Shown here: piece by piece, positions 1 to 27,100 of the stretch
Layout: the number at the start of each line of letters is the position of its first letter
Position numbering within the stretch: position 1 is the first letter of the stretch
Virus record (IMG/VR): IMGVR_UViG_3300027782_000058
Location: 27,080-91,079 of that record
DNA length: 64,000 nt
Reading direction: 5' to 3' (one strand)
Source: a virus
Made by a program: the position numbers and the translations under genes
The notes under the pieces: generated by a model
The model's database searches: none
What the model was told of the DNA's origin: nothing
The model's input: the letters and a program-made list of their open reading frames with translations, nothing else

Positions 1-95
1 AGTTGTCATGCGTCGACCTTACTCGTGAATCGTATTCGAAGTCGAGCGAGCGGGCGGAGAACGAGAAAAAATCTTTACTCCGCCCGCCGGGCGGC

Positions 96-215
96 TCACT
101 TTTTCGGTTCTGTCTTCTTCTTGGCTGCAGCGGGCTTTGCCGCCTGAGGAGTTTTTTCAGGGGCGGGCTTAGTCGCGCCGGGCATGTCTTGCGCGCGGAA
201 GTTGGTTTGGGCCAT
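96..215 (-). CDS. 39-aa Lys/Ala/Pro-rich peptide (MAQTNFRAQDMPGATKPAPEKTPQAAKPAAAKKKTEPKK)
   Basis: Not in the ORF track; translated by hand. ATG at 215-213 is preceded by a strong SD (AGGGAGGTG on the minus strand); TGA at 98-96. Confidence 0.6.
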   Translation of the reverse strand: MAQTNFRAQDMPGATKPAPEKTPQAAKPAAAKKKTEPKK

Positions 216-288
216 GAGGGCACCTCCCTTCCTAACTTCGATGGGCATGTCAGAATCGTACCGTTTTCGGTACTGTTCTGCCTTGACA

Positions 289-329
289 TGACAAGGCCCC
301 CACTCCCCGAGAGGAGTGAGGGCTTGTCA
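289..329 (-). terminator. Hairpin downstream of the 339-698 gene
   Basis: Imperfect inverted repeat TGACAAGGCCCCCACTCC / GGAGTGAGGGCTTGTCA. Confidence 0.6.
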
Positions 330-338
330 GGGTGACGG

Positions 339-698
339 TCAGAGTTGGACCAGTCGTCCTAGGTCAAGCACGCGCTGCATGAGCGCGCCCCATGAGCAGT
401 AGTAGTGCATCCCGTACGCGGACCGCGTGCGGGGGTTGTAGGTCCAAGTGGAGTAGGTGTCCACCTTGCTAGGGGCCTCACCGTCGTTCACGGCGTAGGC
501 GTCCTTGAGGGCGATGCCGCACGCGGCACACGGGCGGTCGCCCGCCTCGCCATCGTTCGGCATGTGGAGCATGAACGTCTTACGCATGCGCCGTGCGCCT
601 TCCGCGAGTGCGGCAAACGTGTCCGCCTCATGGTACGCCTTAGCCCCGGTAGTCCACGGCTTGCGGAAGCCGGGGCGGGTAGTGGTCGAAGTCTTCAC
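339..698 (-). CDS. Early cassette protein, hypothetical (CxxC...HxxC)
   Basis: GTG start with CCTAGGGAGGTG RBS; own promoter at 775-747; terminator downstream. Confidence 0.8.
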   Translation of the reverse strand: MKTSTTTRPGFRKPWTTGAKAYHEADTFAALAEGARRMRKTFMLHMPNDGEAGDRPCAACGIALKDAYAVNDGEAPSKVDTYSTWTYNPRTRSAYGMHYYCSWGALMQRVLDLGRLVQL

Positions 699-746
699 TG
701 TCTCACCTCCCTAGGGTGTCTGCCGGGGTTTTCCCGGTCAGGAGTA

Positions 747-818
747 AAACTACCCTAGATCGAGTCAAAAGTCAAATCGAGGGTAGGACTTGCGAATGTC
801 AGAGAACTAGGGTACTCT
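747..818. promoter_or_regulatory. Divergent promoter pair
   Basis: Minus: TTGACT(775-770)-N17-TAGTTT(752-747). Plus: TTGCGA(790-795)-N17-TACTCT(813-818). Confidence 0.75.
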
Positions 819-861
819 GATCCCATACCCCGAAGACACGGGGCAGAACTAGGGAGGCACA

Positions 862-1092
862 ATGTTCACTGAAGTCAACTTCATCATCGACGTTTGCACT
901 GACTGCTACGTCGCCGCCGCTGGAGTCGGGGACGCGGGTGAGACTCCCGAGTACGCCCCCCTCGCTCACTTCGACGGGCAGGGTACGGCAGTGCCCACTG
1001 AGGAAGGGGAGGGCCACTTCAGCAATCACGGGTGCCCCGGATGCGGGTCACCCCTTGCGGGGCAACGCTTTGAGGTCACGGTTCTGAACTAG
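862..1092 (+). CDS. Small 4-Cys (CxxC...CxxC) phage protein
   Basis: AACTAGGGAGGCACAATG start context; CTDC and CPGCGSPLAG motifs; UACG-loop hairpin at 1105-1126. Confidence 0.85.
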   Translation: MFTEVNFIIDVCTDCYVAAAGVGDAGETPEYAPLAHFDGQGTAVPTEEGEGHFSNHGCPGCGSPLAGQRFEVTVLN

Positions 1093-1163
1093 GCGCGAGA
1101 GGTTGCCCCGGCCTACGGGTCGGGGCTTCCCGCCCCCGTCAGGAAACAATTCCGGCGTAAGAC

Positions 1164-1234
1164 TTGCGATCCGATCCAAAGTAGGGTATCTTCGTACTAC
1201 CGCCCCAAACGGGGGCCAAACTAGGGAGGTCACA
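1164..1234 (+). promoter_or_regulatory. Promoter, 5' stem-loop and RBS cassette
   Basis: TTGCGA-N17-TATCTT, GCCCCAAACGGGGGC hairpin, CTAGGGAGG. Confidence 0.8.
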
Positions 1235-1450
1235 ATGCACACACTCATCACCCCCACCCTCACCCTCGCGGGCACCGTTTACTCGGTGTCTGAGCAGTAC
1301 GAGTCCCCTGCGGCTCACTTCACTACCCGCGAGGCTGCAGTGGCCCACGCGGAAGCCCTTAACGCCGCCTACCGGGGTCGATTCAATGACTGTCTTGGCG
1401 ACGACTACTACCCCACGTTCGCGGTGGGGGAGGTCAAGGTCTACTCCTGA
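1235..1450 (+). CDS. Early cassette protein, hypothetical (71 aa)
   Basis: ATG 1235 follows the CTAGGGAGG RBS (the track start at 1103 is too far upstream); hairpin at 1463-1489. Confidence 0.8.
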   Translation: MHTLITPTLTLAGTVYSVSEQYESPAAHFTTREAAVAHAEALNAAYRGRFNDCLGDDYYPTFAVGEVKVYS

Positions 1451-1509
1451 CCACTGGCACGCGCCCCCCGGCCATACGGTCGGGGGGGCATTCACAACGA
1501 CAGAAGGAA

Positions 1510-1878
1510 GTGATCACAATGCAGAACCCAGTGACATTCACGCCCACTGAGGCCGTGATCCTCACTCACCGGCTAGAGGCCCCTGACGCTATCGCTGAAG
1601 CCCTCTCTGACGGCGGGGCACCGTGGACCTACGCGGCCATCGAGGAACGCGCCACCGCCATCCTCTCGGGCTGGAGGGGAGGCAAGTCCCTGACCGTCGA
1701 CATGGGCGACTCGCTCACCCGCGCCATCATCGAGGACTGTTGTGATGGCAGTGTGTTCTTCGCCGCGATGGAGTACGCGGTCGACTACGGAGAAATTACC
1801 CCCGCAAAGGCGCGACACCTTGAGCAAGCGGCGACCACGCTGGAAGCCAAGACGGGGGTGCCGGTTCCACTCGGATAG
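1510..1878 (+). CDS. Hypothetical protein, second gene of the cassette
   Basis: AGAAGGAA SD; phage-like codon use; UACG terminator at 1891-1927. Confidence 0.8.
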   Translation: MITMQNPVTFTPTEAVILTHRLEAPDAIAEALSDGGAPWTYAAIEERATAILSGWRGGKSLTVDMGDSLTRAIIEDCCDGSVFFAAMEYAVDYGEITPAKARHLEQAATTLEAKTGVPVPLG

Positions 1879-2027
1879 CCGCGCGCCTAGCGAGAAGCCT
1901 CATCCCTACGGGGGATGGGGCTTTTCGCATTCCCGTCGCGAGTCGAGGACGCCGCCGGAAAAAATCTTTGCCTCGCCCCCGCGCGGCCCCGCCCCCGGAC
2001 GAATGGAAAGGCTTCACTCGAAAGAAC

Positions 2028-2100
2028 TTGACACCTGTCATAGGACTGGTATAAGGTGTGTATACATCCCAGAGAGGGGTGCCACTAGGGAGGTGGGAAG
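2028..2100 (+). promoter_or_regulatory. Promoter and RBS
   Basis: TTGACA 2028-2033; -10 TATAAG/TAAGGT at about 2050-2057; CTAGGGAGG. Confidence 0.7.
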
Positions 2101-2385
2101 TTGCAGTACCGAATCACTCACCACGCGGCTCGTCAGGCCGCAGTCAAGGGGTTCGCCATCGACGCCGTGATCCGAGCGGCTCAATCCCCGAGCATCACTT
2201 ACCCGAGCGGGAAGCGTCACCCCGGTCAGGTCCGTCACATTCGTGACGGCATCGTCGCCGTCGTGGACCCCGTGACGGCAACGGTTGTCACGGTCTACGA
2301 GAACGTGCGGGAGACCGCGCTACGTCCCGATCAGCGCGACCCGGTGGCGCTGGAGTACGGCAGGCAGTGGGGCAAGCGGCACTGA
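2101..2385 (+). CDS. DUF4258-like (RelE/BrnT-type fold) putative ribonuclease
   Basis: YRITHHAARQ...P...Y...G...IVAVVDP...VVTVY pattern; TTG start after CTAGGGAGG; terminator at 2396-2427. Confidence 0.65.
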   Translation: MQYRITHHAARQAAVKGFAIDAVIRAAQSPSITYPSGKRHPGQVRHIRDGIVAVVDPVTATVVTVYENVRETALRPDQRDPVALEYGRQWGKRH

Positions 2386-2447
2386 CTGACTGAGAGGGAG
2401 GCCCCCACCTACGGGTGGGGGTCTCCCGTTTGTCAGGGGACCCAAAC

Positions 2448-2476
2448 TTGACAGGCAAGGTAGATAGGCGTATTCT
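2448..2476 (+). promoter_or_regulatory. Promoter
   Basis: TTGACA-N17-TATTCT. Confidence 0.8.
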
Positions 2477-2516
2477 TTGAGAGTTGGACTCACCACACAG
2501 ACAAGGGAGAACCGAA

Positions 2517-2861
2517 ATGACGACCACCACCGTCCTCGAACTTGTGGAGGACTACATGCAGGCAATCCGCGAGGCTACGGCCAAGTACTACGCGGACAAC
2601 TACCACCACCTTCAGCCCCCGATGATCTATGCGGAGCCGGGTCGCCGGTTCGCCCGCATCGTGATGGAAGGCTCGAATCAGCGTACGGTCCACGCTTTCG
2701 TGGACATGGAGACCGGCGACGTGATCAAGGCTGCAGGCTGGAAGGCCCCGCAGAAGGACAAGGACGGCCTCGCGGTTCGCTACCACCTCGCCGATGAGGC
2801 TGATCGCGCGCGGTGCTACGCGGCCATCGACCCTCACGGTGGATACCTCTACAAGTGGTAG
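2517..2861 (+). CDS. Conserved phage hypothetical protein (VHAFVD..TGD..KAAGWKAP...GGYLY family)
   Basis: Motif recalled from diverse phages; ATG 2517 after AAGGGAG; UACG terminator at about 2877-2899. Confidence 0.85.
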   Translation: MTTTTVLELVEDYMQAIREATAKYYADNYHHLQPPMIYAEPGRRFARIVMEGSNQRTVHAFVDMETGDVIKAAGWKAPQKDKDGLAVRYHLADEADRARCYAAIDPHGGYLYKW

Positions 2862-3057
2862 CCCTCACGAAGTACGGCCCCCACCTACGGGTGGGGGCTT
2901 TTCGTTTTCGCGCGACGGGAGGACTGGTAACCCTCTCGCCGAAAGGCCCTCGCCGAAAGGCGGGGGCCTTTTCGCGTGCGAATGCGGGCCGGGTGATGGG
3001 AGGTGGCGAAACTTTTTTTCCGGTCATCGCGCGCGAGGTCGCTACGCGCGGGACAAC

Positions 3058-3128
3058 TTGACACTCGGTAGGATGTTCGATAAGGTAGGACTACCGCCCA
3101 ACCGGGGCGCACAACCTAGGGAGTCGAA
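3058..3128 (+). promoter_or_regulatory. Promoter, stem-loop and RBS
   Basis: TTGACA-N17-TAAGGT; GCCCCAACCGGGGC; CCTAGGGAG. Confidence 0.8.
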
Positions 3129-3377
3129 ATGTCCGTCACCACCGTCACCACCTACGCAATCTCCTACACCGCCACTAACCGTAGCGGCGCGGTCCACACC
3201 TACGTTCTGTCAGACCTTGACACCGCCGGTATCGGCGAGGTCATCGCTTCCATGTACGCGCAACGGGATGACTGGTACTGCCGCAACGTCACCATTGCCA
3301 CGATGGGCGGTCAGGTTGTCTACACGTTCGATGGCACCCCGCACGCCGCTACCGTGGCGAGCGTTCTCTCTCGCTAG
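3129..3377 (+). CDS. Early cassette protein, paralog of 5694-5831
   Basis: Cassette context; shares YAISYT...VLSDLD...NVT with the 5694 ORF; GCGA-loop hairpin at about 3394-3422. Confidence 0.8.
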   Translation: MSVTTVTTYAISYTATNRSGAVHTYVLSDLDTAGIGEVIASMYAQRDDWYCRNVTIATMGGQVVYTFDGTPHAATVASVLSR

Positions 3378-3511
3378 TCACGTCCTAGGCCCCGGCCCTC
3401 ACCCTGCGAAAGGGTGGGGGCTGGCTGGCTTTCCGGCCCATATCGCCATGCGGCGGGCTAGATACAATGGCTTGACATTCCTTGCGCGCCCTACCCTGCC
3501 GGAGGCCCACC

Positions 3512-3682
3512 GTGCCGTTTCGCACGTCGTGCGAGCAATGCGAGGGAGTCGCCACCGTGCTAGTGGCGGGCGGTCGCGCGCACGCGCAATGCCTGCCGCT
3601 GCCGGTGGACTTGACGCGGCTCGCTGCCATGCCGCGACTTCCGGATGGGATCCCGTGGCGGTGCCCGTGGTGCGGCGCTTGA
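3512..3682 (+). CDS. Possible 56-aa zinc-ribbon protein (CEQC...CPWC)
   Basis: GGAGG at 3501-3505 then GTG 3512; two CxxC pairs; lacks the standard cassette frame. Confidence 0.5.
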   Translation: MPFRTSCEQCEGVATVLVAGGRAHAQCLPLPVDLTRLAAMPRLPDGIPWRCPWCGA

Positions 3683-3818
3683 AACTTTTTTTCCTCACCT
3701 ACGCGCACACGGCAGGACATCGGGAGTGCTCGGGCTACCGCGACTTCGAGACTTTGCGCGAAAGTCTGCCGTAAGGCTCTCAGACTTGACATGACTTGAC
3801 GCATAGGGCTCTCATGAC

Positions 3819-3890
3819 TTGACAAACGTTCGGATTCGAGTAAACTGGGCACACCGGCCCACAAGGGGCCGCAACCGAAGGGACACCGAC
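3819..3890 (+). promoter_or_regulatory. Promoter, stem-loop and RBS
   Basis: TTGACA-N16-TAAACT, preceded by two more GACTTGAC copies (3783-3800); GGCCCACAAGGGGCC hairpin. Confidence 0.75.
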
Positions 3891-4421
3891 ATGACCACCT
3901 ACGCCCCCCGCACCCGCGTCGCCCGCCCCGCGACCGACCGTCAGGTTGCGTACGCCGAGGCGCTGCTGCTGCAGGTCACCGGCCCTGACAACTTTGACGA
4001 GGCCCGCCTCGCGCTCGCCGAGCGGGGTGGACTCGCCACGGTTGACGCGGCGTCGCGCACTATCGACGCCCTGCGGACGCAGGCCGCTGCCATGCGGACG
4101 CAGGCCCCTCGCGCCGCTGCCCCTCGCGCCGCTGCCACTGAGGCCCTCGCACTGGGCATGTACCGCCGTGACGGTGAGGTCTACCGCGTAGTCGCCTCGC
4201 GGGCCGGTCGCCCGTACGCTAAGCGCCTTGACCCGGCCACGGGTAAGTTTGACTACGCGGCGGGCGCGATCCGCACGCTCACCGCTGCGGACCGTATGAG
4301 CCTCTCCGAGGCTGCCGAGTACGGTCGGGCCATCGGTCGGTGTTGCGTATGTGGCGCGACGCTCACCGACCCCGAGTCGGTCGCCCGTGGCATCGGCCCC
4401 GTGTGCGGGGGGCGAGTCTGA
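3891..4421 (+). CDS. DUF6011-type zinc-finger protein
   Basis: C-terminal CCVCGATLTDPESVARGIGPVC; N-terminal ATDRQ...ASRTIDAL helical motif; UUCG terminator at 4436-4466. Confidence 0.85.
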   Translation: MTTYAPRTRVARPATDRQVAYAEALLLQVTGPDNFDEARLALAERGGLATVDAASRTIDALRTQAAAMRTQAPRAAAPRAAATEALALGMYRRDGEVYRVVASRAGRPYAKRLDPATGKFDYAAGAIRTLTAADRMSLSEAAEYGRAIGRCCVCGATLTDPESVARGIGPVCGGRV

Positions 4422-4591
4422 GGCCCCGAGCGCGAGAGGCCCCATCCCTTCGGGGGTGGGGCCTTCGTCATGTCGTGCGGATCACGCGCGAGCGGCGAGC
4501 GGCAGGCGAGAAAAAATCTTTGCCCTGCCCCCGTCGGGCGTGGAGTCGCGAGAGGTCGCGCGAGTGGTGAGATTCCCTTCCGAGATTCGAC

Positions 4592-4662
4592 TTGACATGC
4601 CGCACGAGGTACGTCATACTGGAGGCATGCCGCAAGGCGCGGCAGCACCTAGGGAGGCAATC
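4592..4662 (+). promoter_or_regulatory. Promoter, stem-loop and RBS
   Basis: TTGACA-N17-CATACT; GCCGCAAGGCGCGGC; CCTAGGGAGG. Confidence 0.8.
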
Positions 4663-4908
4663 ATGACCGACTACACCACGATCACCGGAACCCGCGAGGG
4701 TGTTCGCGCCTACTACTCCGAGATTGCCCCCGGAGTGTGGGAGGCGGAGATTGAGTGGCAGGACGACTACGCTCGCGGTGTCTGGCACAACGCCGGTTGC
4801 GTTACGTTCACCAGTGAGCCCGACCTCGCCGCCATCGTGAGCGCGGTACAGTCCTACTGCTCCGATCAATACGACCGCGAAATGGAGTACCGCTCCACAA
4901 AACACTGA
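4663..4908 (+). CDS. Early cassette protein, hypothetical (81 aa, acidic)
   Basis: ATG 4663 after the RBS; GAAA-loop terminator at 4915-4951. Confidence 0.8.
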   Translation: MTDYTTITGTREGVRAYYSEIAPGVWEAEIEWQDDYARGVWHNAGCVTFTSEPDLAAIVSAVQSYCSDQYDREMEYRSTKH

Positions 4909-5068
4909 CACCCGAAAGATGCCCCGCCCCGAAAGGGTGCGGGGCATCTTTGCGTTTGGGATTGACAATCCGGCGCGCGAGGGGCACCGCCGCACCGTGG
5001 AAAAAATCTTTGCCCACGGGGCGGTCGGGAGTCGCGCGCGGACTGCGAACCATGCCGATGCACTTGAC

Positions 5069-5138
5069 TTGACACTGCCTTAGATCCGAGTAAACTGGGA
5101 CTACCGCCCCGGCAGGGGGCCACACCTAGGGAGACCAA
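5069..5138 (+). promoter_or_regulatory. Promoter, stem-loop and RBS
   Basis: TTGACA-N16-TAAACT; GCCCCGGCAGGGGGC; CCTAGGGAG. Confidence 0.8.
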
Positions 5139-5477
5139 ATGTCCACTGTCATCGCCACCGCCACCCCCACGTCCGCCGCTATCTCGGACGGCATCGTGCG
5201 GGCAAGTGTCGACCTTATGGGACGCAACCGTGAGGGGCGTCAGGAATGGCGCTACAGCATCGCCTGCGAGTCCGAGGCTCAGACTGGCACCGACCTGCGG
5301 ACGGGAGTTGGGGCCACAGAGACTGGCGTCGACATGCTCCGTACCCTCGCGGGATTCCTCGCGGCACACTCCGAGTCCTCCGAGGGCGGCGAGTGTGCGG
5401 ACCTGTTCGATATCTCGCGAGAGGCTACGGAGGCCATCTCCGAGGTCATCTACTACGCGGTCGGGTGGGATGCCTGA
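5139..5477 (+). CDS. Early cassette protein, hypothetical
   Basis: Cassette context; terminator at 5490-5525. Confidence 0.8.
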   Translation: MSTVIATATPTSAAISDGIVRASVDLMGRNREGRQEWRYSIACESEAQTGTDLRTGVGATETGVDMLRTLAGFLAAHSESSEGGECADLFDISREATEAISEVIYYAVGWDA

Positions 5478-5621
5478 CCCGAACGTTCTGAAAGGCCCCG
5501 CATCCGAAAGAGCGCGGGGCCTTTCGCATTGCGCGGGGAGCGCGCGCGGTGGAATCGGAAAAAATCTTTAGACCGCCGCCCCGCCCGTCGCCACGCGCCC
5601 ATCGCCCGGTCCCGATAGAAC

Positions 5622-5693
5622 TTGACAACGCTCGCAGAATCCGGCATACTAGATCCATGCCGCAGGGAGCGGCACTAATCAAGGGAGACTGAA
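5622..5693 (+). promoter_or_regulatory. Promoter, stem-loop and RBS
   Basis: TTGACA-N17-CATACT; GCCGCAGGGAGCGGC; AAGGGAG. Confidence 0.8.
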
Positions 5694-5831
5694 ATGACCT
5701 TCGCAATCGCCTACACCGTGAACACCGAGAACATCGTCCTGTCGGGCCTTGACTCGCAGGGGCTTATCGATGCCGTGCTCTACTCGGCTCAATACGGCCC
5801 CATCACGAACGTCACGGTGTCGTCCTACTGA
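5694..5831 (+). CDS. 45-aa protein (MTFAIAYTVNTENIVLSGLDSQGLIDAVLYSAQYGPITNVTVSSY), paralog of 3129-3377
   Basis: Not in the ORF track; full cassette frame; terminator at 5844-5874. Confidence 0.8.
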   Translation: MTFAIAYTVNTENIVLSGLDSQGLIDAVLYSAQYGPITNVTVSSY

Positions 5832-5889
5832 CAGGCACCGCGCGAGACCCCGGCCCTTACGGGTCGGGGTCTTTCGCTTTCTAGGGGGC

Positions 5890-5960
5890 TTGACAACGTG
5901 ACTCAAACTAGTAGACTGGGGCTACGCCCCGATACGCGGGGCCTGACCTAGGGAGTCACA
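5890..5960 (+). promoter_or_regulatory. Promoter, stem-loop and RBS
   Basis: TTGACA-N16-TAGACT; GCCCCGATACGCGGGGC; CCTAGGGAG. Confidence 0.8.
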
Positions 5961-6098
5961 ATGGCCGTTATGACCACAGAGTGGATCTGTTCCTCATGCC
6001 GTACCGTGTGGGTGAGTGAGGACTACCCGCTTTGCCCGGAGTGCCGCACGGATGAGTGCGCGCTCACGCGCGAGGCGTGGGTTAGGTGGGTACGATGA
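5961..6098 (+). CDS. 45-aa rubredoxin-like zinc-ribbon peptide (WICSSC...CPEC)
   Basis: Not in the ORF track; ATG 5961 after the RBS; stop overlaps the next start (ATGA). Confidence 0.75.
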   Translation: MAVMTTEWICSSCRTVWVSEDYPLCPECRTDECALTREAWVRWVR

Positions 6099-6406
6099 CC
6101 ACCACCCGCAACGCAAACGCCGCTATCGCGTCGTGCGAGACGTTCCGCGCGTCGGCCCTGTCGGGAGTCACCACGGTGCCCGGTGCGGGTCGCCTTGACG
6201 GTGCCGACCGTGATCGGTTCTACGCCGACCGGGACGCTATCGCCTACGCGGTTATGTCCTACGGCACGCCTATCGCGTGGCTCACGCCGCGCGGGTGGCA
6301 CGTCGTGGGCCAGCGTTTCAGCGTCACCACTTCACGACACCAGAGCGTCACCTTGCGGGGCGTGCGCGAGTGGTGCGAACGGTCGGGAGTCACTTGCGTT
6401 TGGTGA
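6095..6406 (+). CDS. Conserved phage hypothetical protein (YAVMSYGTPIAW...FSVTTSRHQ family)
   Basis: Recognisable phage motif; ATGA coupling; terminator at 6424-6459. Confidence 0.85.
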   Translation: MTTTRNANAAIASCETFRASALSGVTTVPGAGRLDGADRDRFYADRDAIAYAVMSYGTPIAWLTPRGWHVVGQRFSVTTSRHQSVTLRGVREWCERSGVTCVW

Positions 6407-6648
6407 CCCGCTAGCCTCCGAGTGAGAGCCCTGCCCCGTTTGAGGGGGGTGGGGCTCTCGCCGTTTCGCGCGCGGCGTGCGGGCGCTCGACGAAAAAAAT
6501 CTTTACCCCCCCGGTGTTTGGCTCGACGGACTACCGAGAGGTGGTCGGGGTCTTCACTTGTCTCCCGGCGGGGTGCGGGGCGGGGCGCGCCCACCCGTGA
6601 CGCTCTCGGGGCGCTATCAAACCGTGACCTAGAAACTTGCGGGAAGTG

Positions 6649-6720
6649 TTGACAGTCTCCCCAAACTCTGACAAACTAGAGGCATGCCCCAAACGGGGGC
6701 ACCACCTAGGGAGGCACCAA
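6649..6720 (+). promoter_or_regulatory. Promoter, stem-loop and RBS
   Basis: TTGACA-N17-CAAACT; GCCCCAAACGGGGGC (identical to 1202-1216); CCTAGGGAGG. Confidence 0.75.
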
Positions 6721-6828
6721 ATGTCACTCACCACCACCACCGCCTACACGGTCACTAGCCTCTGGGATGACGACCTAGAGGACGCACTCTGTGAGTGCGT
6801 TGCCGATGACTGCCCCCTAGATCACTAG
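6721..6828 (+). CDS. 35-aa acidic Cys/His peptide
   Basis: Full cassette frame; UACG terminator at 6842-6865. Confidence 0.7.
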   Translation: MSLTTTTAYTVTSLWDDDLEDALCECVADDCPLDH

Positions 6829-6930
6829 GGGGCAAGCGGGCAGGGGCACCCTACGGGGTGCCCCTTTCGTTGCCCGGCGGGGGTGCGCGGCGGGCGTCCG
6901 GAAACTTTTTTTCGTGCCTCGCGCCCCAGC

Positions 6931-6988
6931 GGCACGGCACGGCCTACGGCAGGGCAGGGCAGGGGCAGGGCAGGGCAGGGCAGGGGGG
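6931..6988 (+). repeat. (GGGCA)n / GGCAC tandem repeat, G-rich
   Basis: Direct reading of the sequence. Confidence 0.85.
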
Positions 6989-7034
6989 TGACGATGACCG
7001 TTATAGAACCGTGACCAAAACTTGCGAGACTGGC

Positions 7035-7106
7035 TTGACACTTGGCAGGCAACTACGGTACTTTCGTTGTATGCCGCAAAGGGCGGCACCAACTAGGGAG
7101 GCACCA
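7035..7106 (+). promoter_or_regulatory. Promoter, stem-loop and RBS
   Basis: TTGACA-N18-TACTTT; GCCGCAAAGGGCGGC; CTAGGGAGG. Confidence 0.7.
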
Positions 7107-7367
7107 ATGTCCAACTACACCTTCACCACCAACACCCCGTTCGTCAACGTCTCTGTCGGTCCGCGTACCGATGTTGCTCAGTACATCTTCCACCTCGCCA
7201 ACGGGGACAGTATCAGCGTTCTCCCCGCCTACGACCCTGCCGACTTCGAGTCGGCGTACATCCCCGCCGGGGACACGTCCGGACGTTGGGATGTTCGTAG
7301 GTGGGACGGCACCGACGCCTCCCCTGAGAGCGTGGCCCTCGCGCACCTCGCGGCACTCACCGCCTGA
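7107..7367 (+). CDS. Early cassette protein, hypothetical
   Basis: ATG 7107 after the RBS; UACG terminator at 7380-7409. Confidence 0.8.
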   Translation: MSNYTFTTNTPFVNVSVGPRTDVAQYIFHLANGDSISVLPAYDPADFESAYIPAGDTSGRWDVRRWDGTDASPESVALAHLAALTA

Positions 7368-7413
7368 CCCTCGCTCACTGGAAGGCCCTCGCTACGGCGG
7401 GGGCCTTCCTCAT

Positions 7414-7451
7414 GCGGCAGGGCGGCAGGGCGGCAGGGCGGCAGGGCGGGG
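7414..7451 (+). repeat. (GCGGCAGG)x4 tandem repeat
   Basis: Direct reading of the sequence. Confidence 0.85.
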
Positions 7452-7478
7452 CCTCCCGAAAAAGTTTGCCGGTAGGTC

Positions 7479-7554
7479 TTGCCATCCGATTCGAAGTACG
7501 GTACTTTTACCTCAGCGCCCCAAAAGGGGCCACAACCTAACCTAGGGAGACACA
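7479..7554 (+). promoter_or_regulatory. Promoter, stem-loop and RBS
   Basis: TTGCCA-N17-TACTTT; GCCCCAAAAGGGGC; CCTAGGGAG. Confidence 0.8.
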
Positions 7555-7782
7555 ATGACCACCACCGCCACCCGCCCCACCCCCACTACCAAGACCGTTT
7601 CCGTTGCCGTTCACCCTAGCGGCGAGTGTTTCGTCGTCACCCGGATCGATGGGTTTTACGACGCGGGTAACGGCTTCCGCGACCGTTCATTCTGGGAGGT
7701 TGTGTTCACCCTCAAGCGGGCAGGCGGGGACGTGCTGCACAAGGTGCCGAACCGCCACTACCGCCCGTGTGAGTGCGGGTAG
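7555..7782 (+). CDS. Early cassette protein, hypothetical
   Basis: Cassette context; GGAA-loop terminator at 7794-7828. Confidence 0.8.
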   Translation: MTTTATRPTPTTKTVSVAVHPSGECFVVTRIDGFYDAGNGFRDRSFWEVVFTLKRAGGDVLHKVPNRHYRPCECG

Positions 7783-7836
7783 TCCGCACCACGGCGAGAG
7801 GCCCCGCCCGGAAGGGTGGGGCCTCTCGCATGTCGG

Positions 7837-7899
7837 GCTCACGGCTCACGGCCTACGGCTCACGGCCTACGGCTCACGGCTCACGGCCTACGGCCTACG
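7837..7899 (+). repeat. Nine tandem heptamers, GCTCACG/GCCTACG
   Basis: Counted directly. Confidence 0.9.
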
Positions 7900-7903
7900 G
7901 CCC

Positions 7904-8068
7904 CCCGTACTTACGGTCACCGCCCTCCCGGACGTGTGGCAGGCCCTGCAGCCTGCCGCCGGATGGCTCACTACCGCGTGGACTGTGGTCGACGGTGCGG
8001 GCCGTGAGTACCGTAGCGACTCCCCCGCCGACGCGGTGGCCTCTACAGGGCAGGAAGGTAGGCCCTAG
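7904..8068 (+). pseudogene. Possible headless cassette gene remnant
   Basis: Protein-like frame (VLTVTALPDVWQ...WTVVDGAGREYRSDSPADAV) followed by a cassette-type terminator at 8081-8117, but no promoter or RBS. Confidence 0.35.
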
Positions 8069-8140
8069 GCCCACGACTCGGAAGGCCCCGACACCCGCGA
8101 GGGAGTCGGGGTCTTTCGTTGTGTCCATGCTCACGCGCAC

Positions 8141-8680
8141 TAACGCACGTTAACGCGCGTTAGCGCGCGTTAGGAATGAGCGACAGGACATGCCCCTATG
8201 CCCCTCAGAGAGGCTCTAGAGCATTAGAACACCCTCATCCTCATGTTCCCCCAGACTCACCCTGACAGGCCCTCAGAGAGGCTCTAGAGCCTCAGGGCAG
8301 GAAGGCAGGGCAGGAAGGTAGGGCAGGGGCTTCCTGTCGGGAGGTAGGGGCAGGGAGGCAGGGGCAGGCAGGCAGGGAGAGAGAGAGAGAGAGGGCAGGG
8401 ACACTCGACAGGCTCACTCGACAGGCTCGACACACTCGACTGACCCTCGACTCGACTCGACTCACTCGACAGGCAGGCACTCGACTCGACTCACTCGACA
8501 GGCAGGCACTCGACTCGACTCACTCGACAGGCAGGCAGGCAGGCACTCGACTCGACACACTCGACACACTAGACATGGCCCTCGACAGGCAGGAAGGCAG
8601 GCAGGGGAAAGGTTTTTTCCCTGCCCTAGTATGTCCGTTTTGCTCTTGATGTCCGTTTTGATCCTTTCTGTCCGTTTTGT
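8141..8680. repeat. Non-coding nested repeat block
   Basis: 10-mer x3 (8141-8173); 21-bp direct repeat (8202-8222, 8270-8290); GGCAGG/(GA)n tract; about 18 CTCGAC including a 29-bp unit x3 (8451-8537); TGTCCGTTTTG x3 (8632-8679). Confidence 0.9.
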
Positions 8681-8801: not shown

Positions 8802-9266
8802 ATGACGCTTCCAGAAGAGGAGACCCTCCTCCTCCGCTCGCTCTCTCAACCAGACCTTCACCCGCGTCTGAAGGCGCTCAACTCCGTTGGCTGGCCGATC
8901 TCGACTCTCGCCAACGCACTCTCCCCCGCACGACCGAAGGCGACCGTCCACTACTGGATCTCCAGATGCCACACGTCCGACCGCCTCGACATCCCGCTCC
9001 CCCACCCCCTCAAGCGCGAGAAGGCAGCACGTCCAGTACGTCCAACCGTCTCCCCGGAGGACGCCGCCACGCTCCGCTCCCTGTCGCAACTCGCACGCCG
9101 CCACCGAGCCCGCCAGCGCCCCGACGCGCCTCAGGCCATCGCGTCCCGAGAACTCACCATCCTCGCCGCACAACTGAACTCCACGGGCGTGCCCACCGCC
9201 GCAATCGCCAAGGCGGCAGGAATTTCCTATCGCGCCATGCACAAAAGGATCACAAACTCTGGTTGA
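8802..9266 (+). CDS. Double helix-turn-helix DNA-binding protein
   Basis: GWPISTLANAL...KATVHYW and GVPTAAIAKAAGISYRAMHKRI; TTGCAT-N18-TAGACT ends 7 nt before the ATG (leaderless). Confidence 0.75.
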   Translation: MTLPEEETLLLRSLSQPDLHPRLKALNSVGWPISTLANALSPARPKATVHYWISRCHTSDRLDIPLPHPLKREKAARPVRPTVSPEDAATLRSLSQLARRHRARQRPDAPQAIASRELTILAAQLNSTGVPTAAIAKAAGISYRAMHKRITNSG

Positions 9267-22285: not shown

Positions 22286-23212
22286 ATGAACAGCAAGCAG
22301 CGCTCCGCCAATGCGGCGAAGGTCTATCAGGACTGGATCAAGGCAAATCCGAAGATGGACCCGGACAACCCGACTCCGGAGCAAGAGAACGACTACTTCA
22401 TGCGTCTCTACGAGTCGGATCCTGATGTCGCAGGCAAGGGATGGGCTGATGCCGTATCCAAGATGAGCGAAGAAGAGATCACACAGTATTTGGACGATCA
22501 GGAGAAGGCATCTCCCGAGACAGCAAACTCCTTCCGTGTACAGGCTCTGATGGCGGCTGTAGATGAGTCGACCGACGAACTTGTTGGTCTGGTGCTATTC
22601 GTTCCATCATCTGGAACAAAGGGTCTAGAGACCGAATGGGTTCGTGTCGATGGTGAGTGGGTTCCCGAGAGCGTCAGCCCTCTGGCCGATATGTCAGAAG
22701 ATGATCTGGTCTACTACCCAGTAACGGACGACTACATCTTAATCTATGATGGAGGATCACGGTCCATCGAGGACGCGATGAGCCACAAGACGGAGATCCC
22801 TGAGCCTGTTGCGCCAGTCTCGTCACCCATCACTGCCGCAGCCTTCTCATGCCCGGCTCCCACGCAGGACATCCCTCTCAACCTAGCCAATCGACAGAAG
22901 GCCATTGATGGCGCTGGCTACGGACCGATGAATCCAACACGCCCGAATGAGCAGTTCTGGCAGGCAAAGGCAGACCGTTGGAGCACCACTGTAGAAGAGG
23001 CTAAGTCGTCCAAGTGCGGCAATTGTGCAGCATTCATTATCACTGCTTCTATGAGAGAATGTATCAATCAAGGGCTAGGCGATGACGCGGACTCTTGGAA
23101 CGTGATCAACGCTGGTGATCTCGGATACTGTGAAGCATTCGACTTCAAGTGCGCTTCTGAGCGGACTTGTGACGCATGGATCGTCGGCGGTCCCATTACT
23201 GAGGAGAAGTAG
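22286..23212 (+). CDS. Head-region protein with a C-terminal Cys-rich domain
   Basis: CGNCAAF...GYCEAFDFKCASERTCDAW; middle WVRVDGEW module. Confidence 0.8.
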   Translation: MNSKQRSANAAKVYQDWIKANPKMDPDNPTPEQENDYFMRLYESDPDVAGKGWADAVSKMSEEEITQYLDDQEKASPETANSFRVQALMAAVDESTDELVGLVLFVPSSGTKGLETEWVRVDGEWVPESVSPLADMSEDDLVYYPVTDDYILIYDGGSRSIEDAMSHKTEIPEPVAPVSSPITAAAFSCPAPTQDIPLNLANRQKAIDGAGYGPMNPTRPNEQFWQAKADRWSTTVEEAKSSKCGNCAAFIITASMRECINQGLGDDADSWNVINAGDLGYCEAFDFKCASERTCDAWIVGGPITEEK

Positions 23213-24054: not shown

Positions 24055-24114
24055 GTTCTAGTACTACGTCAAGTTCGCTAGAATATAGGAACAAACAGTC
24101 AGAATGGAGAGACC

Positions 24115-27100
24115 GTGGGCTACTTCGGTAGGTCTGGCGATCTAGCGCTGTTCGTGTTCGACGAACTGGGTGTCGTCGTGGACGAGGGGCTCAACCTCGT
24201 CGTGGAGAAGGGGCATCTGGATGCCCTGATCGCTTCCGGCGACTGGAACACTGACGACTCTGAATACTCCAAGGCGGCAGAGGACATCGCGCAGGCGTCC
24301 ATCACAGATCTCGATATCCACGTCTTCTCGTCTAATGACCGTCTCTACACGATCCCGAAGTCCGTCCAATCGGAGGCCAAACGTGCTCTTGAGTGGAGGA
24401 AGACGCACAAGCGTGGCGGAACTCCAGTAGGACTAAACACCGCTCGCACTCTGGCCGAGGGTGGACAGATTGGGATCAAGAAGATCCGCCACATCGCTCG
24501 CTACTTCCCTCGTCACGAGGTTGATAAGCGTGGCCAAGGGTACAAACTGGGAGATAAGGGATTTCCCAGCAACGGTCGAATCGCATGGGCTCTCTGGGGA
24601 GGGGACGCTGCACAGAAGTGGGCAGCGACTATCGTAGAACGAGACGACAAGAAGAAAAAGTCTCTCACTGCTGATGGACTTCCTTCCGAGTACTTCGAGC
24701 CGAGCAGCAGTCGATTTGACTACTTCCGAATGGCAGAAAATCTGCCTGCTGAAGAGGCTCCGGAGTTCATGGCCCGAGTCCGTCTCGACGGGAGCGGGAT
24801 TGACCGCATCTACATGATGGATGCTGATGGGATCGTCTACATCTGGGACGACGGATCTTGGGATGACCTAGGTCTGTTCGAGCAGGACATCATGTCATTT
24901 GATGCTTTCTTCGACATGCCAGACGACGACGTAGACACCATGTACGTTCCAGTGGACGCTGAGGCTGCTGTCAAGATCTGCGCCCTCATCGATGCTGAGC
25001 CGTTCTCCCCCAAAAACACTAGCGACTTCTCTTCTGACGAAGAGATGCTAATGGTACATAGCGCCCTGTCCGAGATCGACTGGGACGAGGTCGACAGGGT
25101 TCTGGTAGCCGCTGGTGAGGCTCCTGCAGCAGATGCCCCCGCCGACCAGCCTCAGGGGGATGGCAACTACACCCCGGATGAGCGCTCCAAGAATGCGTCC
25201 AAGCAGGTTCGTGACGCGACTGGCAAATTCTCGAAGAGCGGATCACGAGTAGTTGTTGGCAATGACACGAACTCCCGTGGAACGATCACGTCGATCAATC
25301 CTGACACTCAGACTGTCGACGTACAACTGGACAACGGAAACACTGTCACCGTCCCCGGAACTGCCACTCAGGGGGAGGACAAGTTCGTAGACGTGTCGGC
25401 AGAGAACGAGACCAACATGACTGTCCCTCCGAGTGCCACCGCTGGCATTCTAGGCCAGCCTCGCGTCCCATCAAATCAGCCGAATGCTCGTATCCCCGGC
25501 ATGCTTCCCCCTCTCACTGGAGAAAGCATCTCTCTGCTGCTCAATGACTGGCCTGCATGGGTTGCAGCCGAGCGTGAGTTGTACCGGCAGACCGCTCCCA
25601 AGACTCCCCCGAACATCGGTCCGCGCCAGTACAACGTTCCCCAGCGGGACAACACTGGTGTAGATGTCCGAGACCCCTCCACCGGAGGCACTCGAAACGT
25701 CGCATGGAATCCGATGCAGGCTCCCAACGCATACAACCACCCCCTGCTGCGCGACTGGCTGAAAGGCAGCGACCGTCACGGCCACCCAAACCGTGGATGG
25801 TACAACCCAATCGTTCGCAGGAACGTGATCGAGCCCCGCAGGTACTTCTCCGCCGAGGTTCTCATCGCTGCTGGTGCCGAACATCCTGAGGTGCAGGAGA
25901 TCAAGAAGCCTGATCCCAATGCTCCCAAGGCAAAGTCAGGCCCTGACTTCACACCTGAAACCTCTGACGTTCCTCCCATGTACATGGCCATCGTCGCTCA
26001 GGATGATCCTCAAGCCGTCATGGACCTGATCTCTCTGGTTCCAGTGAACTCCCAGTCATCCACTCCGACCATCTTCCGCAGGGAGCCCGGTGAGTGGGTC
26101 AAGGATGATGCCATCCTCGCTGACCTGAACTCTCCCACGCCTCCACCAGTGGTTGTGCTGGACAACAAGAACCTAGCATCAGTGGTCGAGCAGATCGACC
26201 AAGCCTTGGTGGCATCTGCCTCTTATCTGCTTGACCGTCGTCTTGCTGATCTCTGGATCAGCGGTGCTGATGTCATGGCGATTGTCGCTGCTGGTGGCGT
26301 TGACCGCAACCGTGGCAACGCTGAGAAACTACGTCGGTACTGGACTGTTGGTGAGGGTGGAGCGAAGATCCGCTGGGGGACTGGCGGAGACTGGAAGCGC
26401 TGCGTTCGCCACCTGTCGAAGTATCTCGGTCCGCGTGCGAAGGGCTACTGCAACCTTCGTCACAAGGAGATGCTGGGCATCTACCCCGCTACCCACGCGA
26501 AGCGCCTCCGCGAGAACTCGATGGAGCAGCCTCTATACATGGAGGTTCCAGACTCTGACCTGCAGATGCCCATCGAGGCCATTCATGCTGAGGAAGACAA
26601 GAACTTTGATCACGAGTGGGAGCCAAACGAAGAAGTCGTTTGGATGCTCATCGAACTCAAGGATCTTGATGACGACACGTTCAGCCTAGTAGCCGCTGGC
26701 GGTCTAGACCGCAATCGCGGAAACGCTGAGGAGTTGCGCCGCTACTGGACGGTCGGCAAGGGTGGAGCCAAGATTCGCTGGAACACCAAGGGCGACTGGA
26801 CCCGCTGCACACGTCATCTTGCCAAGTACCTAGGCCCACGAGCCAAGGGCTACTGCGCTCTCCGCCACAAGGAGATGACAGGTATGTGGACCGGAGATCA
26901 GGCTCACCGTCAGATGTACGGGCGCAAGTCTTTCAGCACCGACTTCATCCTGCCTGAGCAGCAGATCATCGAGAACGCTGCACTGTCTGCTCAGATCGCC
27001 TCTGCCAAGGCCCGTATCTCTGGTGTCACTGCTTCCGGCAGCACTCCTGAGTACGGCTCTGCATTCTTCATCCCTCTGGTCATCCCTGAGCAGATGGAGT

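Follow-up and report, generated by a model that had tools for sequence, protein, structure and literature searches.

A repeated box in the early arm of an uncultured actinophage

The 91,079-bp record IMGVR_UViG_3300027782_000058 derives from an uncultured phage with actinobacterial hosts and represents ~54% of the genome. It contains a 35.7-kb arm of small early genes and a 55-kb virion arm, and the window that we analysed is a 64,000-nucleotide stretch of it (record positions 27,080 to 91,079). Early genes are arranged as cassettes in which a hairpin with a short T-tail is followed by a spacer, a TTGACA-N16-18-TAnnnT promoter, a leader and the gene. A short A-tract box is present in 21 of the 56 early-arm spacers. 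A preliminary description of this DNA had suggested counting the motif genome-wide, and an 11-mer search of the whole record with the core AAAAAATCTTT finds 19 exact copies, 17 on the plus strand and 2 on the minus strand, all between record positions 2,237 and 33,573 in the early arm and none in the virion arm. The 12-mer GAAAAAATCTTT occurs exactly 17 times in the whole record (15 forward, 2 reverse), whereas a control word with the same letters written backwards occurs 0 times. No other 9-12-mer of the early arm is repeated as often as the box core; the ribosome-binding word CTAGGGAGG has 12 copies there and GACTTGACA has 9. Allowing at most 2 mismatches, the window contains 15 matches to GAAAAAATCTTT, compared to 2.02 +/- 1.50 in shuffled sequence, and 7 matches to the variant GAAACTTTTTTTC, compared to 0.62 expected; 0 of 100 shuffles reached 15 and 0 of 100 reached 7, respectively. 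The repeated box is real.

The box consists of an A6 tract and then T3, and forms an AT island within spacer DNA of roughly 70% GC. Its edges are sharp, with a letter-perfect core and unrelated flanks among the 19 exact copies; column counts over these copies give G at position -2 in 15, G at -1 in 17, R at +11 in all 19 and C at +12 in 14. The core had been described as quasi-palindromic, which holds for the variant boxes, as these fit GAAA-N5-TTTC, but not for the main box, which ends in TTT-R instead. Separate palindromic forms, A6-N0-2-T5-6, are seen at record positions 858, 3750, 5790 and 7255, as well as in the related lineages L208 and L266.

Individual copies in the window

All eleven sites listed previously are present in the sequence. 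The first, an exact main box on the plus strand at 65..76, lies at a convergent gene junction and forms the center of a perfect 10-bp inverted repeat, a stem that none of 552 mismatched-flank controls equals. It adjoins a gene called on the minus strand at 96-248, and it is the only copy able to act as a terminator tail, for that minus-strand gene. Further exact main boxes, all on the plus strand, are found at 1958..1969, ~33 nt past the terminator hairpin of the gene at 1519-1878 and with TTGACA 58 nt on; at 4510..4521, ~41 nt past the terminator of the gene at 3891-4421, with TTGACA 70 nt on and a flanking stem of 6 bp; at 5000..5011, with TTGACA 57 nt on and likewise a 6-bp flanking stem; and at 5558..5569, ~31 nt past the terminator of the gene at 5139-5477, with TTGACA 52 nt on. 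A seven-A form, GAAAAAAATCTTT, at 6492..6504 on the plus strand gives a one-mismatch match to GAAAAAATCTTT at 6493 and is followed by TTGACA 144 nt on.

The variant box GAAACTTTTTTTC (reverse complement GAAAAAAAGTTTC) is exact at three minus-strand sites. That at 3008..3020 lies 38 nt before TTGACA, that at 3681..3693 overlaps the stop codon of a small ORF (3512-3682) and has no terminator visible upstream of it, and that at 6901..6913 lies 36 nt past a terminator. A degenerate plus-strand copy, GAAAAAGTTT, at 7458..7467 includes the form AAAAAGTTT at 7459 and sits ~12 nt before a weak -35; its membership is uncertain. Finally, the minus-strand variant GAAAGGTTTTTTC at 8607..8619, with a 7-bp flanking stem and a one-mismatch match to GAAAAAATCTTT at 8608, is located inside an ORF-less repeat block, with the virion operon starting its first gene ~190 nt further on.

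The box follows terminators and precedes promoters at variable distance

Our own gene calls place 23 of 24 boxes, counting the variants, between genes, although intergenic DNA makes up only ~37% of the arm. Spacers with a box are longer than those without, with a median of 248 nt versus 127 nt (Mann-Whitney p 2e-4). The preliminary description had placed the box between a terminator and the next -35, and the exact copies bear this out: a run of at least 4 T lies within 70 nt upstream in 10 of 19, at a distance of 12-33 nt (median 20), and a promoter-like site lies within 200 nt downstream in 12 of 19, at 16-156 nt. Judged by eye, ~14 of the 19 have a GC-rich hairpin upstream and ~5 have no visible terminator there. 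Cassettes with a terminator and a promoter yet without a box also occur, and given these together with boxes that lack a terminator, the box is not obligatory. The sequences of terminators and promoters vary while the box is invariant, and the box is closer to the preceding terminator than to the following promoter. The inverted exact copy at record position 22563 occupies the same post-terminator place as the forward copies. No copy overlaps a -35 or -10, the nearest ending 16 nt upstream of a -35, and column counts over the 19 copies reveal no conserved -10-like element at a fixed distance 3' of the box.

An UP element would be expected at a constant place, about -40 to -60 relative to the promoter. 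As had been anticipated, the distance from the end of the box to the -35 varies (16-156 nt), with no fixed spacing, and we reject the box as an UP element. We likewise agree that it is not the U-tail of an intrinsic terminator, as the coding strand of the box is rich in A in 17 of 19 copies and the real T-run precedes it by 12-33 nt.

Related phages carry boxes at the same place

A terminase search for the clade returned at least 599 stretches, at least 597 of which encode a relative; the closest relative compared, L275, has 75% identity to this record in its AAA_5 protein and otherwise shares only short gene segments with it. Nevertheless, L275 keeps the identical box AAAAAATCTTT, with 6 copies on the plus strand and 3 on the minus strand, mostly behind hairpins, and its inverted copies at 16225 and 19822 are in the post-terminator place. 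The box is therefore kept in a diverged relative. In L234 the box reads AAAAAATATTT, with TATTT where this record and L275 have TCTTT, and other lineages have invariant words of their own at the post-terminator place, including GTATTTATTTTTTC, GTATTCATTTTTT and GTATCCACTTTTT. These relatives' boxes have 14-16 invariant letters, G and C among them. Box types appear to differ between lineages by small steps, with all copies changing together. The similarity of boxes across lineages is of low complexity and can be aligned in either orientation, and does not prove a common origin.

Forward copies of GTATTTATTTTTTC number 10 in L250, 12 in L252, 16 in L254 and 13 in L256. Despite the same box, L256 has only a few 14-mer runs in common with L254, a single one with L252 and no such run with L250; phages with one box type have almost no cassette sequence in common. 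In the sole cassette common to L256 and L254, homology begins 86 nt past the box and not at the box. Orientation is near uniform in some lineages (forward:reverse 13:0 in L256, 16:0 in L254, 10:0 in L250 and 14:1 in L244) and mixed in others (9:6 in L263, 4:7 in L247 and 4:5 in L249). The complete 153.7-kb genome G004 has all 15 of its copies on one strand within a 14-kb block, spaced one per 560-830 bp across most of it. An unbiased test, which takes the commonest 9-mer within 45 nt past a hairpin and T-run, puts the lineage's box on top in this record (6 of 12 terminators), at 11 of 62 viral loci (at least 5 windows each) and at 14 of 47 metagenome loci (at least 4 windows each), some of the latter being the same contigs as the viral loci.

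Candidate binding proteins

The double-HTH protein encoded at 8802-9266 had been proposed as the binder. Of 80 terminase loci, 72 have homologues of it (78 ORF hits); where a position was given, these lie ~1.2-1.7 kb before the terminase gene, and they occur in lineages with quite different early regions. Therefore, this looks like a conserved protein of the packaging module, as judged by gene neighborhood, rather than the partner of the box. Pfam and PHROGs scans of the 56 early-arm proteins detected a WhiB and one HTH-like protein with an HNH repeat, and no repressor-like family among these 56. As the record covers ~54% of the genome, the binder could be encoded outside the record, or be a host protein. 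A suggested role for Lsr2, with the box as a decoy, finds no support: no Lsr2 or HU gene was detected in any of the five records searched, and a generic AT-rich decoy leaves the letter-perfect G/C positions unexplained.

A putative docking site at cassette boundaries

Given the versions of the box at the same place in related phages, its most likely function is to dock a regulatory protein. The preliminary description had predicted a protein site on double-stranded DNA, and this is still the best reading of the inverted copies, the lineages with both orientations and the lineage-specific words at one place. Specifically, we give about an even chance to the box being a sequence-specific double-stranded DNA recognition site for a trans-acting factor whose specificity changes between lineages. 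We infer protein binding, phage origin and effect alike, and the putative factor is most likely a phage-encoded protein. The occurrence of both orientations at the same place argues against a promoter or an RNA signal; the strong orientation bias (17:2 here and near uniform in several lineages) would fit a strand-specific signal too. The earlier interpretation is thus partly supported.

With one site per long spacer of the early cassette array, directly behind the terminator of the upstream gene, the factor would most likely act where two cassettes adjoin. From a position 10-30 bp past the terminator, a bound protein could meet RNA polymerase arriving at, or reading through, a terminator with a short T-tail. 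Early cassettes might thereby be insulated from one another, or the entire early set might be switched off together, as stoperators do in Cluster A mycobacteriophages. The phage looks lytic, and therefore any role would be in timing or insulation, not immunity. A broader proposal, which we put forward tentatively and consider doubtful, is that a very large freshwater clade of actinophages controls its arrays of early cassettes through a boundary operator that can be reprogrammed. One fast-evolving factor would dock once per cassette, 10-30 bp behind each terminator, and would back up weak terminators or silence the whole early set, and box and factor would change specificity together between lineages. 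Such an operator would bring the logic of stoperators to lytic phages, in a form that does not depend on orientation and has nothing to do with immunity.

Should a protein bind it, the box would be a compact and portable control point of 11-16 bp marking every early cassette in a widespread group of uncultured phages, and would offer a handle on the timing or insulation of dozens of host-takeover genes in large lytic actinophages. The lineage versions would then amount to a ready-made set of paired site and factor specificities, comparable to the Cluster A immunity systems and useful for recognition rules and for orthogonal switches in actinobacteria. If nothing binds, the box is a well-documented conserved motif and no more.

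Alternative explanations

Rather unlikely is that the box is recognized by a regulator or nucleoid protein of the host, borrowed or soaked up by the phage, with host sites differing by lineage. The L244-type box contains TATCCAC, which resembles a DnaA box, and the four variant boxes of this record fit the mycobacterial Zur (FurB) core GANAANNNTTTTC with one mismatch each. Mutating G1 and C13 of that core together abolishes repression (PMC4298942). The main box deviates from it at position 9 (C for T) and position 13 (R for C), and we reject the main box as a Zur box; moreover, the one-letter steps between related lineages, made by all copies together, favor a co-evolving phage factor. It is unlikely that the box is a promoter, or promoter element, for a phage-modified or phage-encoded RNA polymerase, such as a middle-class promoter before early cassettes, for which T4 MotA boxes and T7-type promoters are models. 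A lineage-specific, invariant and sharp-edged word upstream of genes and mostly co-oriented with them (17:2 here; 13:0, 16:0, 10:0 and 14:1 in L256, L254, L250 and L244) would suit such a promoter. However, no conserved -10-like sequence follows the box at a set spacing, inverted copies are seen at the same place, both orientations are in use in L263, L247 and L249, the box is in any case followed by a host-type TTGACA-N16-18-TAnnnT promoter, and the virion arm has no box. In addition, no Sigma70_r2 match was detected in five of five records in which controls were positive, and no T7-like RNA polymerase in five of five related records (four at least 90% complete), the latter being a weak test in which this record was not included and no control matched.

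We regard as quite unlikely a role in cassette swapping, as a microhomology or recombination signal or as the site of a site-specific recombinase. Boxes come one to a cassette boundary, phages that share a box differ wholly in what their cassettes contain, and the array has the terminator-promoter layout of PeSLs as outlined in PMC4122927. Against this, homologous exchange would have only a short stretch of 11-16 bp to use, no dyad arms flank a core in the box, the homology of the cassette common to L256 and L254 begins 86 nt after the box, and selection for evolvability would hardly preserve every letter. Tyrosine recombinases or integrases are absent from five of five records, and a resolvase is present in only two of the five, being absent from G004 despite its 15 boxes. 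A signal at the RNA level, acting in read-through transcripts as a processing site, an antitermination box, a target of a trans-RNA or ribozyme, or a hairpin loop, is very unlikely. The terminators have short T-tails, so read-through is plausible; AUC in the word is a possible ribozyme cleavage triplet; and 4 of 24 copies are centered in stems of 6-10 bp. However, stems of at least 6 bp are also seen in 37 of 552 mismatched-flank controls, the best flanking stem averages 4.0 bp compared to 3.5 bp in these controls, and flanking inverted repeats are not general. RNAalifold predicts 0 pairs for the 19 copies, a search of the early 38 kb gave no Rfam family, and the inverted copies and two-orientation lineages also speak against an RNA signal. 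No hammerhead core with box-matching arms was found in 91 kb (~54% of the genome), and we reject the box as a trans hammerhead target. Most improbable of all is a purely structural element, an A-tract that is intrinsically bent or melts easily and works without a specific protein. An A6 and T3 island in roughly 70% GC spacer, and palindromic A6-N0-2-T5-6 forms in this record, L208 and L266, would suit it, but a bend does not require the invariant T-C, the preceding G-G or the following R-C, and the 14-16 invariant letters of the relatives' boxes, G/C included, exceed a bend's needs.

Comparison with known systems

As an AT-rich word upstream of a strong sigma-70-type promoter, the box is like UP elements, the Fis sites of rrn P1 and T4 MotA boxes, all of them protein sites that lie upstream of strong promoters. 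There is a loose resemblance between the 15-mer GG-A6-TCTTT-RC and the Fis-site outline, G-N3-A-W5-T-N3-C; Fis is not known in actinobacteria. Unlike those sites, the box lies 16-156 nt from the -35 and nearer to the terminator than to the promoter.

Stoperators are described from the Cluster A mycobacteriophages L5, Bxb1 and TipsytheTRex, with more than twenty 13-mers in L5, in the accounts of PMC9283540 and PMC6550527. Both stoperators, as outlined there, and the box are short asymmetric words with many copies in the intergenic spaces of actinobacteriophages, in one prevailing orientation and with a consensus that drifts between related phages, and both have been proposed to act on elongating RNA polymerase. 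However, stoperators are genome-wide, whereas the box is confined to the early arm of a record covering ~54% of the genome. Stoperator orientation follows the direction of transcription and reversed stoperators are inactive, according to PMC9283540, whereas inverted boxes are kept here (17:2), in L275 (6:3), in L263 (9:6) and in L247 (4:7). Some stoperator copies are operators inside an early lytic promoter, whereas no box overlaps a promoter, and stoperators have a cognate monomeric immunity repressor, whereas no repressor-like family is seen among the 56 early-arm proteins of this ~54% of the genome, nor any tyrosine integrase in five of five records. Given its orientation and the lack of promoter overlap, we do not place the box in the Cluster A stoperator family and call it stoperator-like only.

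PeSLs, as outlined in PMC2839356 and PMC4122927, and this array both frame small variable genes with a composite terminator and an early promoter, and both belong to plastic parts of large lytic phage genomes; in this record a composite terminator stem-loop plus early promoter does lie between small variable genes. The abstract of PMC4122927 mentions no separate invariant word between the PeSL terminator and promoter. A PeSL, as presented there, is the terminator plus promoter itself, with a proposed role in recombination, whereas the box is an extra word between the two.

Copy number and sequence of the box

The IMG/VR record (91,079 bp, 54% complete according to CheckV; L206 in our locus numbering) contains the window at bases 27,080-91,079 and consists of an early arm (record 1-35,700; window 1-8,620) with approximately 70 genes at 60-65% GC, for the most part small and on the plus strand, and a remainder that is the virion operon, encoding terminase, a 3121-residue protein and the tail genes. 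Pfam searches place actinophage families in the early arm (WhiB, L5 gp82-like, GP88, two copies of DUF6011, DUF732, AAA_5 ATPase and a domain resembling histone deacetylase), and the DNA runs containing the stretch are freshwater metagenomes. A close relative is present in sample S2, which has 77% of the sequence words, and run X3 has 6% of them. Genes, terminators and promoters in the record were called by simple pattern scans, and the gene call is rough.

All of the sites listed in the preliminary description of an A-rich box in the cassette spacers were found in the sequence, and a genome-wide count confines the box to the early arm: the 11-mer core AAAAAATCTTT occurs as 19 exact copies (17 plus, 2 minus), all at record 2,237-33,573, and the 55-kb virion arm is without a comparable repeat. 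Searching the window for GAAAAAATCTTT with up to two mismatches gave 15 matches versus 2.0 expected, a number reached in 0 of 100 shuffles. The exact 12-mer is present 17 times in the whole record, versus zero for a control pattern with the letters reversed. In k-mer counts of the early arm, the AAAAAATCTTT box is the top repeated 9-, 10-, 11- and 12-mer; it outnumbers the shared ribosome-binding word as well as the word of the -35. The 19 exact copies extend to a consensus GG-AAAAAATCTTT-R-C, in which position -2 is G in 15 copies, -1 is G in 17, +11 is R in all 19 and +12 is C in 14; outside of this, their flanks are unrelated. A second form, GAAAAAAAGTTTC, has an exact core four times, three of them inverted, and GAAAAAACCTTTC is found inverted at window 8607. 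These two variants fit GAAA-N5-TTTC, whereas the main box ends TTT-R. In either orientation, GAAA-N5-TTTV is found 27 times in the record, and 24 of these sites belong to the early arm. Among the matches listed for the box word in published papers, all were to primers or unrelated sequences.

Palindromic A6-8/T5-6 boxes were also noted at L206:3750-3790 and L206:5790-5835, and similar sequence (GCGGCACGG...CTGTTCAT) follows both of them for 25-30 nt; further palindromic forms are A6-TA-T6 at L206:858 and A6T5 at L206:7255.

Location of the box in the spacers

Based on our own rough gene call, 23 of 24 boxes are intergenic, while the intergenic share of the arm is only about 37%; the sole exception sits in a doubtful ORF. 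A box is found in 21 of 56 spacers, and boxed spacers are longer, with a median of 248 nt versus 127 nt for those without (Mann-Whitney p 2e-4). Among the 19 exact copies, ten have a run of at least four Ts within 70 nt upstream, at 12-33 nt (median 20), and reading of the flanks places a GC-rich hairpin upstream of about 14, several with weak T-tails. In the 200 nt downstream, a promoter of TTGACA type is present for 12 of the 19, at distances of 16-156 nt, and no pattern of helical phasing in the box-to-promoter distances was apparent by eye. No box overlaps any promoter, and where the gap between terminator and promoter is only 10-25 nt the cassette has no box. The inverted copy at record 22563 lies approximately 30 nt past a terminator and 43 nt ahead of TTGACA. 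The box is therefore tied more tightly to the preceding terminator than to the following promoter, and this spacing bears out the earlier view, which excluded both an UP element and a terminator tail.

Relatives with the same or a nearby box

Relatives of the terminase are abundant, being encoded by at least 597 of at least 599 matched stretches, and 80 terminase loci were kept for the box search. The forward box was found in none of the 80 and the reverse in five copies across four loci; this reflects either phages too distantly related or loci that fall short of the arrays. A 15-mer scan of viral contigs gave single chance matches only, among the matches listed, and these loci were left out of the comparison. 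Querying with the AAA_5 ATPase, which is encoded mid-array, recovered 62 viral loci and 80 metagenome loci, some on shared contigs, and none of the metagenome loci recovered exceeded 75% protein identity. As for other queries, the DUF6011 protein led to one distant locus, a cassette protein to none in metagenomes, and a pattern scan with a 615-aa protein to no relative, a local phmmer search later finding it in 61 of the 62 viral loci.

Locus L275 (75% protein identity) has only nine short gene segments in common with this record. It carries AAAAAATCTTT in six forward and three reverse copies, plus one A7GTTT and one A6TATTT, most of them behind hairpins and ahead of TTGACT or TTGACA. A second locus at 75%, L234, has AAAAAATATTT or AAAAATATTT at the equivalent places.

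Lower-GC lineages have different invariant words at the post-terminator place: GGTATTTATTTTTTCTG in L250, L252, L254 and L256, GTATTCATTTTTT in L264 and L269, GTATCCACTTTTT in L244, L258 and L259, TTTTTCATTTTTTCC in L265, AACGTAAAGAAWGTGTAC in L255, TACACGGAAAA in L263, and, in L247 and L249, a two-part word made up of TACATGGAAAA and, at a distance of six bases, AAGGGT. In most loci the median distance from the T-run to the start of the word is 11-15 nt; in L265, L247 and L249 it is 21-39 nt. In G004, a complete relative of 153.7 kb, all 15 copies are on the same strand in a 14-kb block, spaced at 560-830 bp over most of it. Orientation is mixed in L263 (9:6), L247 (4:7), L249 (4:5) and L275 (6:3), and inverted copies in mixed lineages occupy the same post-terminator place; in L263 two copies only 17 nt apart form an inverted pair. 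Because the words are of low complexity, aligning the box types of one lineage with those of another is ambiguous.

An unbiased count took the 9-mer seen most often in the 45 nt that follow any hairpin and T-run. In this record that 9-mer is the box, at 6 of 12 terminators, and in 11 of the 62 viral loci it is the lineage's box at five or more such post-terminator windows; the remaining viral loci have no recurrent post-terminator word or few detectable terminators. Among metagenome loci, 47 are at least 10 kb long, and 14 of these have a recurrent 9-mer at four or more windows. Phages with the GTATTTATTTTTTC box have nearly no cassette DNA in common; the 14-mer runs of L256 include nine found also in L254, one in L252 and none in L250. 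The copies are therefore kept identical by selection, and their identity is not a residue of recent duplication.

Interpretation of the box

The preliminary description proposed a protein site on double-stranded DNA and named candidate proteins to bind it. The site itself is the best-supported reading and we give it an even chance, whereas the named candidates found no support. Recognition of a specific double-stranded sequence by a trans-acting factor is suggested by a sharp-edged, invariant word kept across diverged genomes, by one-letter steps between lineages in which all copies change together, by the tolerance of both orientations and by the placement of the box outside the main transcription units. 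On account of the one-letter steps we also favor a factor encoded by the phage rather than a conserved protein of the host. Since the box is tied to the terminator, the putative bound factor would act on polymerase arriving from upstream, as a roadblock or insulator or as a common shut-off.

That the box is a site for a host factor is unlikely, even though the L244-type word has the DnaA-box-like TATCCAC. Furthermore, the mycobacterial Zur core GANAANNNTTTTC (PMC4298942) differs from each of the four variant boxes by a single mismatch, but in the main box position 9 is C and the essential C13 is missing, and a Zur box was rejected for it on these grounds. That the box serves a phage polymerase or sigma factor as a promoter is also unlikely, given that boxes are used in both orientations and have no fixed downstream -10; in addition, Sigma70_r2 was found in 0 of 5 records, Sigma70_r4_2 gave sub-threshold matches only, and a T7-like RNA polymerase was found in 0 of 5 related records, a weak test as this record was outside the search and the control was silent. 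We consider a recombination signal distinctly unlikely, with tyrosine recombinase (integrase) in 0 of 5 records and resolvase in 2 of 5, being absent from G004. A bare A-tract bend is barely plausible, as it would leave the invariant G, C and TC letters unexplained.

At window 65 the copy is enclosed by a perfect inverted repeat of 10 bp, and stems of 6-7 bp flank three others, features that an RNA-level signal could share. Over 24 copies, however, the best perfect stem averages 4.0 bp versus 3.5 bp with flanks of mismatched copies, stems of at least 6 bp occur in 4 of 24 copies versus 37 of 552 controls, and RNAalifold predicted 0 pairs, and hence no consensus fold, from 19 aligned copies. 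With flanking stems weakly enriched and no predicted pair, a hairpin was rejected as part of the element; the inverted repeats belong to a few copies. An Rfam search of the early 38 kb found no family, and no hammerhead with arms matching the box was found in the 91 kb searched. A signal at the RNA level is thus very improbable.

Returning to the putative protein site, elements of this kind have precedents in the stoperators of Cluster A mycobacteriophages and the promoter-early stem-loop (PeSL) cassettes of T4-type phages. Action on polymerase from upstream would resemble stoperators as described in PMC9283540 and PMC6550527. Unlike in those accounts, the box is confined to one arm of this 54% complete record, overlaps no promoter and keeps reversed copies; tyrosine integrase was not found in five records, nor a repressor among 56 early-arm proteins scanned. 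The box is not a member of the stoperator family. The cassette layout matches PeSLs (PMC4122927, PMC2839356). What it adds is the invariant word that stands between the terminator and the promoter, which does not appear in the PMC4122927 abstract.

Candidate binding proteins

The proposed double helix-turn-helix binder at window 8802-9266 (154 residues) has homologues in 72 of the 80 terminase loci (78 ORF hits, E down to 7e-41), approximately 1.2-1.7 kb upstream of the terminase gene where a position was given. It matches no Pfam or PHROG family. Its conservation at this place makes it look like a packaging-module protein, probably small-terminase-like. Of the other candidates named, Lsr2 was found in 0 of 5 records, as was HU; WhiB genes are present in 5 of 5, and WhiB was set aside as nothing connects these genes with the box. 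The candidates to be considered still include three WhiBs and an HTH-like protein with an HNH repeat at record 24074-24751.

Early proteins conserved across the 62 viral loci are the AAA_5 ATPase (62), its 615-residue (61) and 150-residue (58) neighbours, and a CCCH protein (53). The latter (L206:2354-3265, 303 residues) is 40-66% identical across 41 aligned relatives, with C157, C167, C181 and H184 invariant. Its predicted model (pLDDT 79.5) has no PDB match at E <= 0.001, and in the Atlas it falls in hypothetical viral clusters only. Protein presence and box type both track phylogeny, and a correlation between them was dropped for this reason. No candidate binder can be named.

Other recurrent words in the spacers

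Approximately 30 nt downstream of three boxes are two or three close copies of TAACGA (e.g. AACGATTCGATAACGAC), at L206:9610-9650, L206:12340-12365 and L206:13935-13955, all upstream of the window; possibly this word is a further site within those spacers. A Cys-rich small ORF at window 3512-3682 (56 codons, GTG start) has its stop codon inside a variant box and is followed within 40 nt by three TTGACA words. Near the end of the array, at window 6950-6990, 7410-7445, 7838-7905 and 8140-8600, spacers hold short GC-rich tandem words (GGCAGGGCAGGG, GGCGGCAGGGC, CTCACGGC/CCTACGGC and CTCGAC units) and terminate in a repeat block without ORFs, ahead of the virion operon.

In L256:8467-20792 and L250, GACACGG follows the box by about 10-30 nt, along with CGCGCTCGCGG or its complement; as further recurrent words lie between box and promoter, these spacers would be multi-part modules. 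GACAC is the WhiA motif, and these phages carry WhiB genes. The post-terminator GTATCCACTTTTTT of L244, L258 and L259, with 13-14 copies per locus, contains TATCCAC, which is close to the DnaA-box consensus. L226:6189-14614 is without the terminator-box layout, and there TTCTAAAGAAG abuts a TAYAAT -10 directly past stop codons about 21 times, which looks like a class of promoter without a -35. Finally, in L225, L228, L230 and L235, AGTAAAAAGTAAAAA occurs 15-17 times immediately 5' of start codons, replacing the Shine-Dalgarno word.
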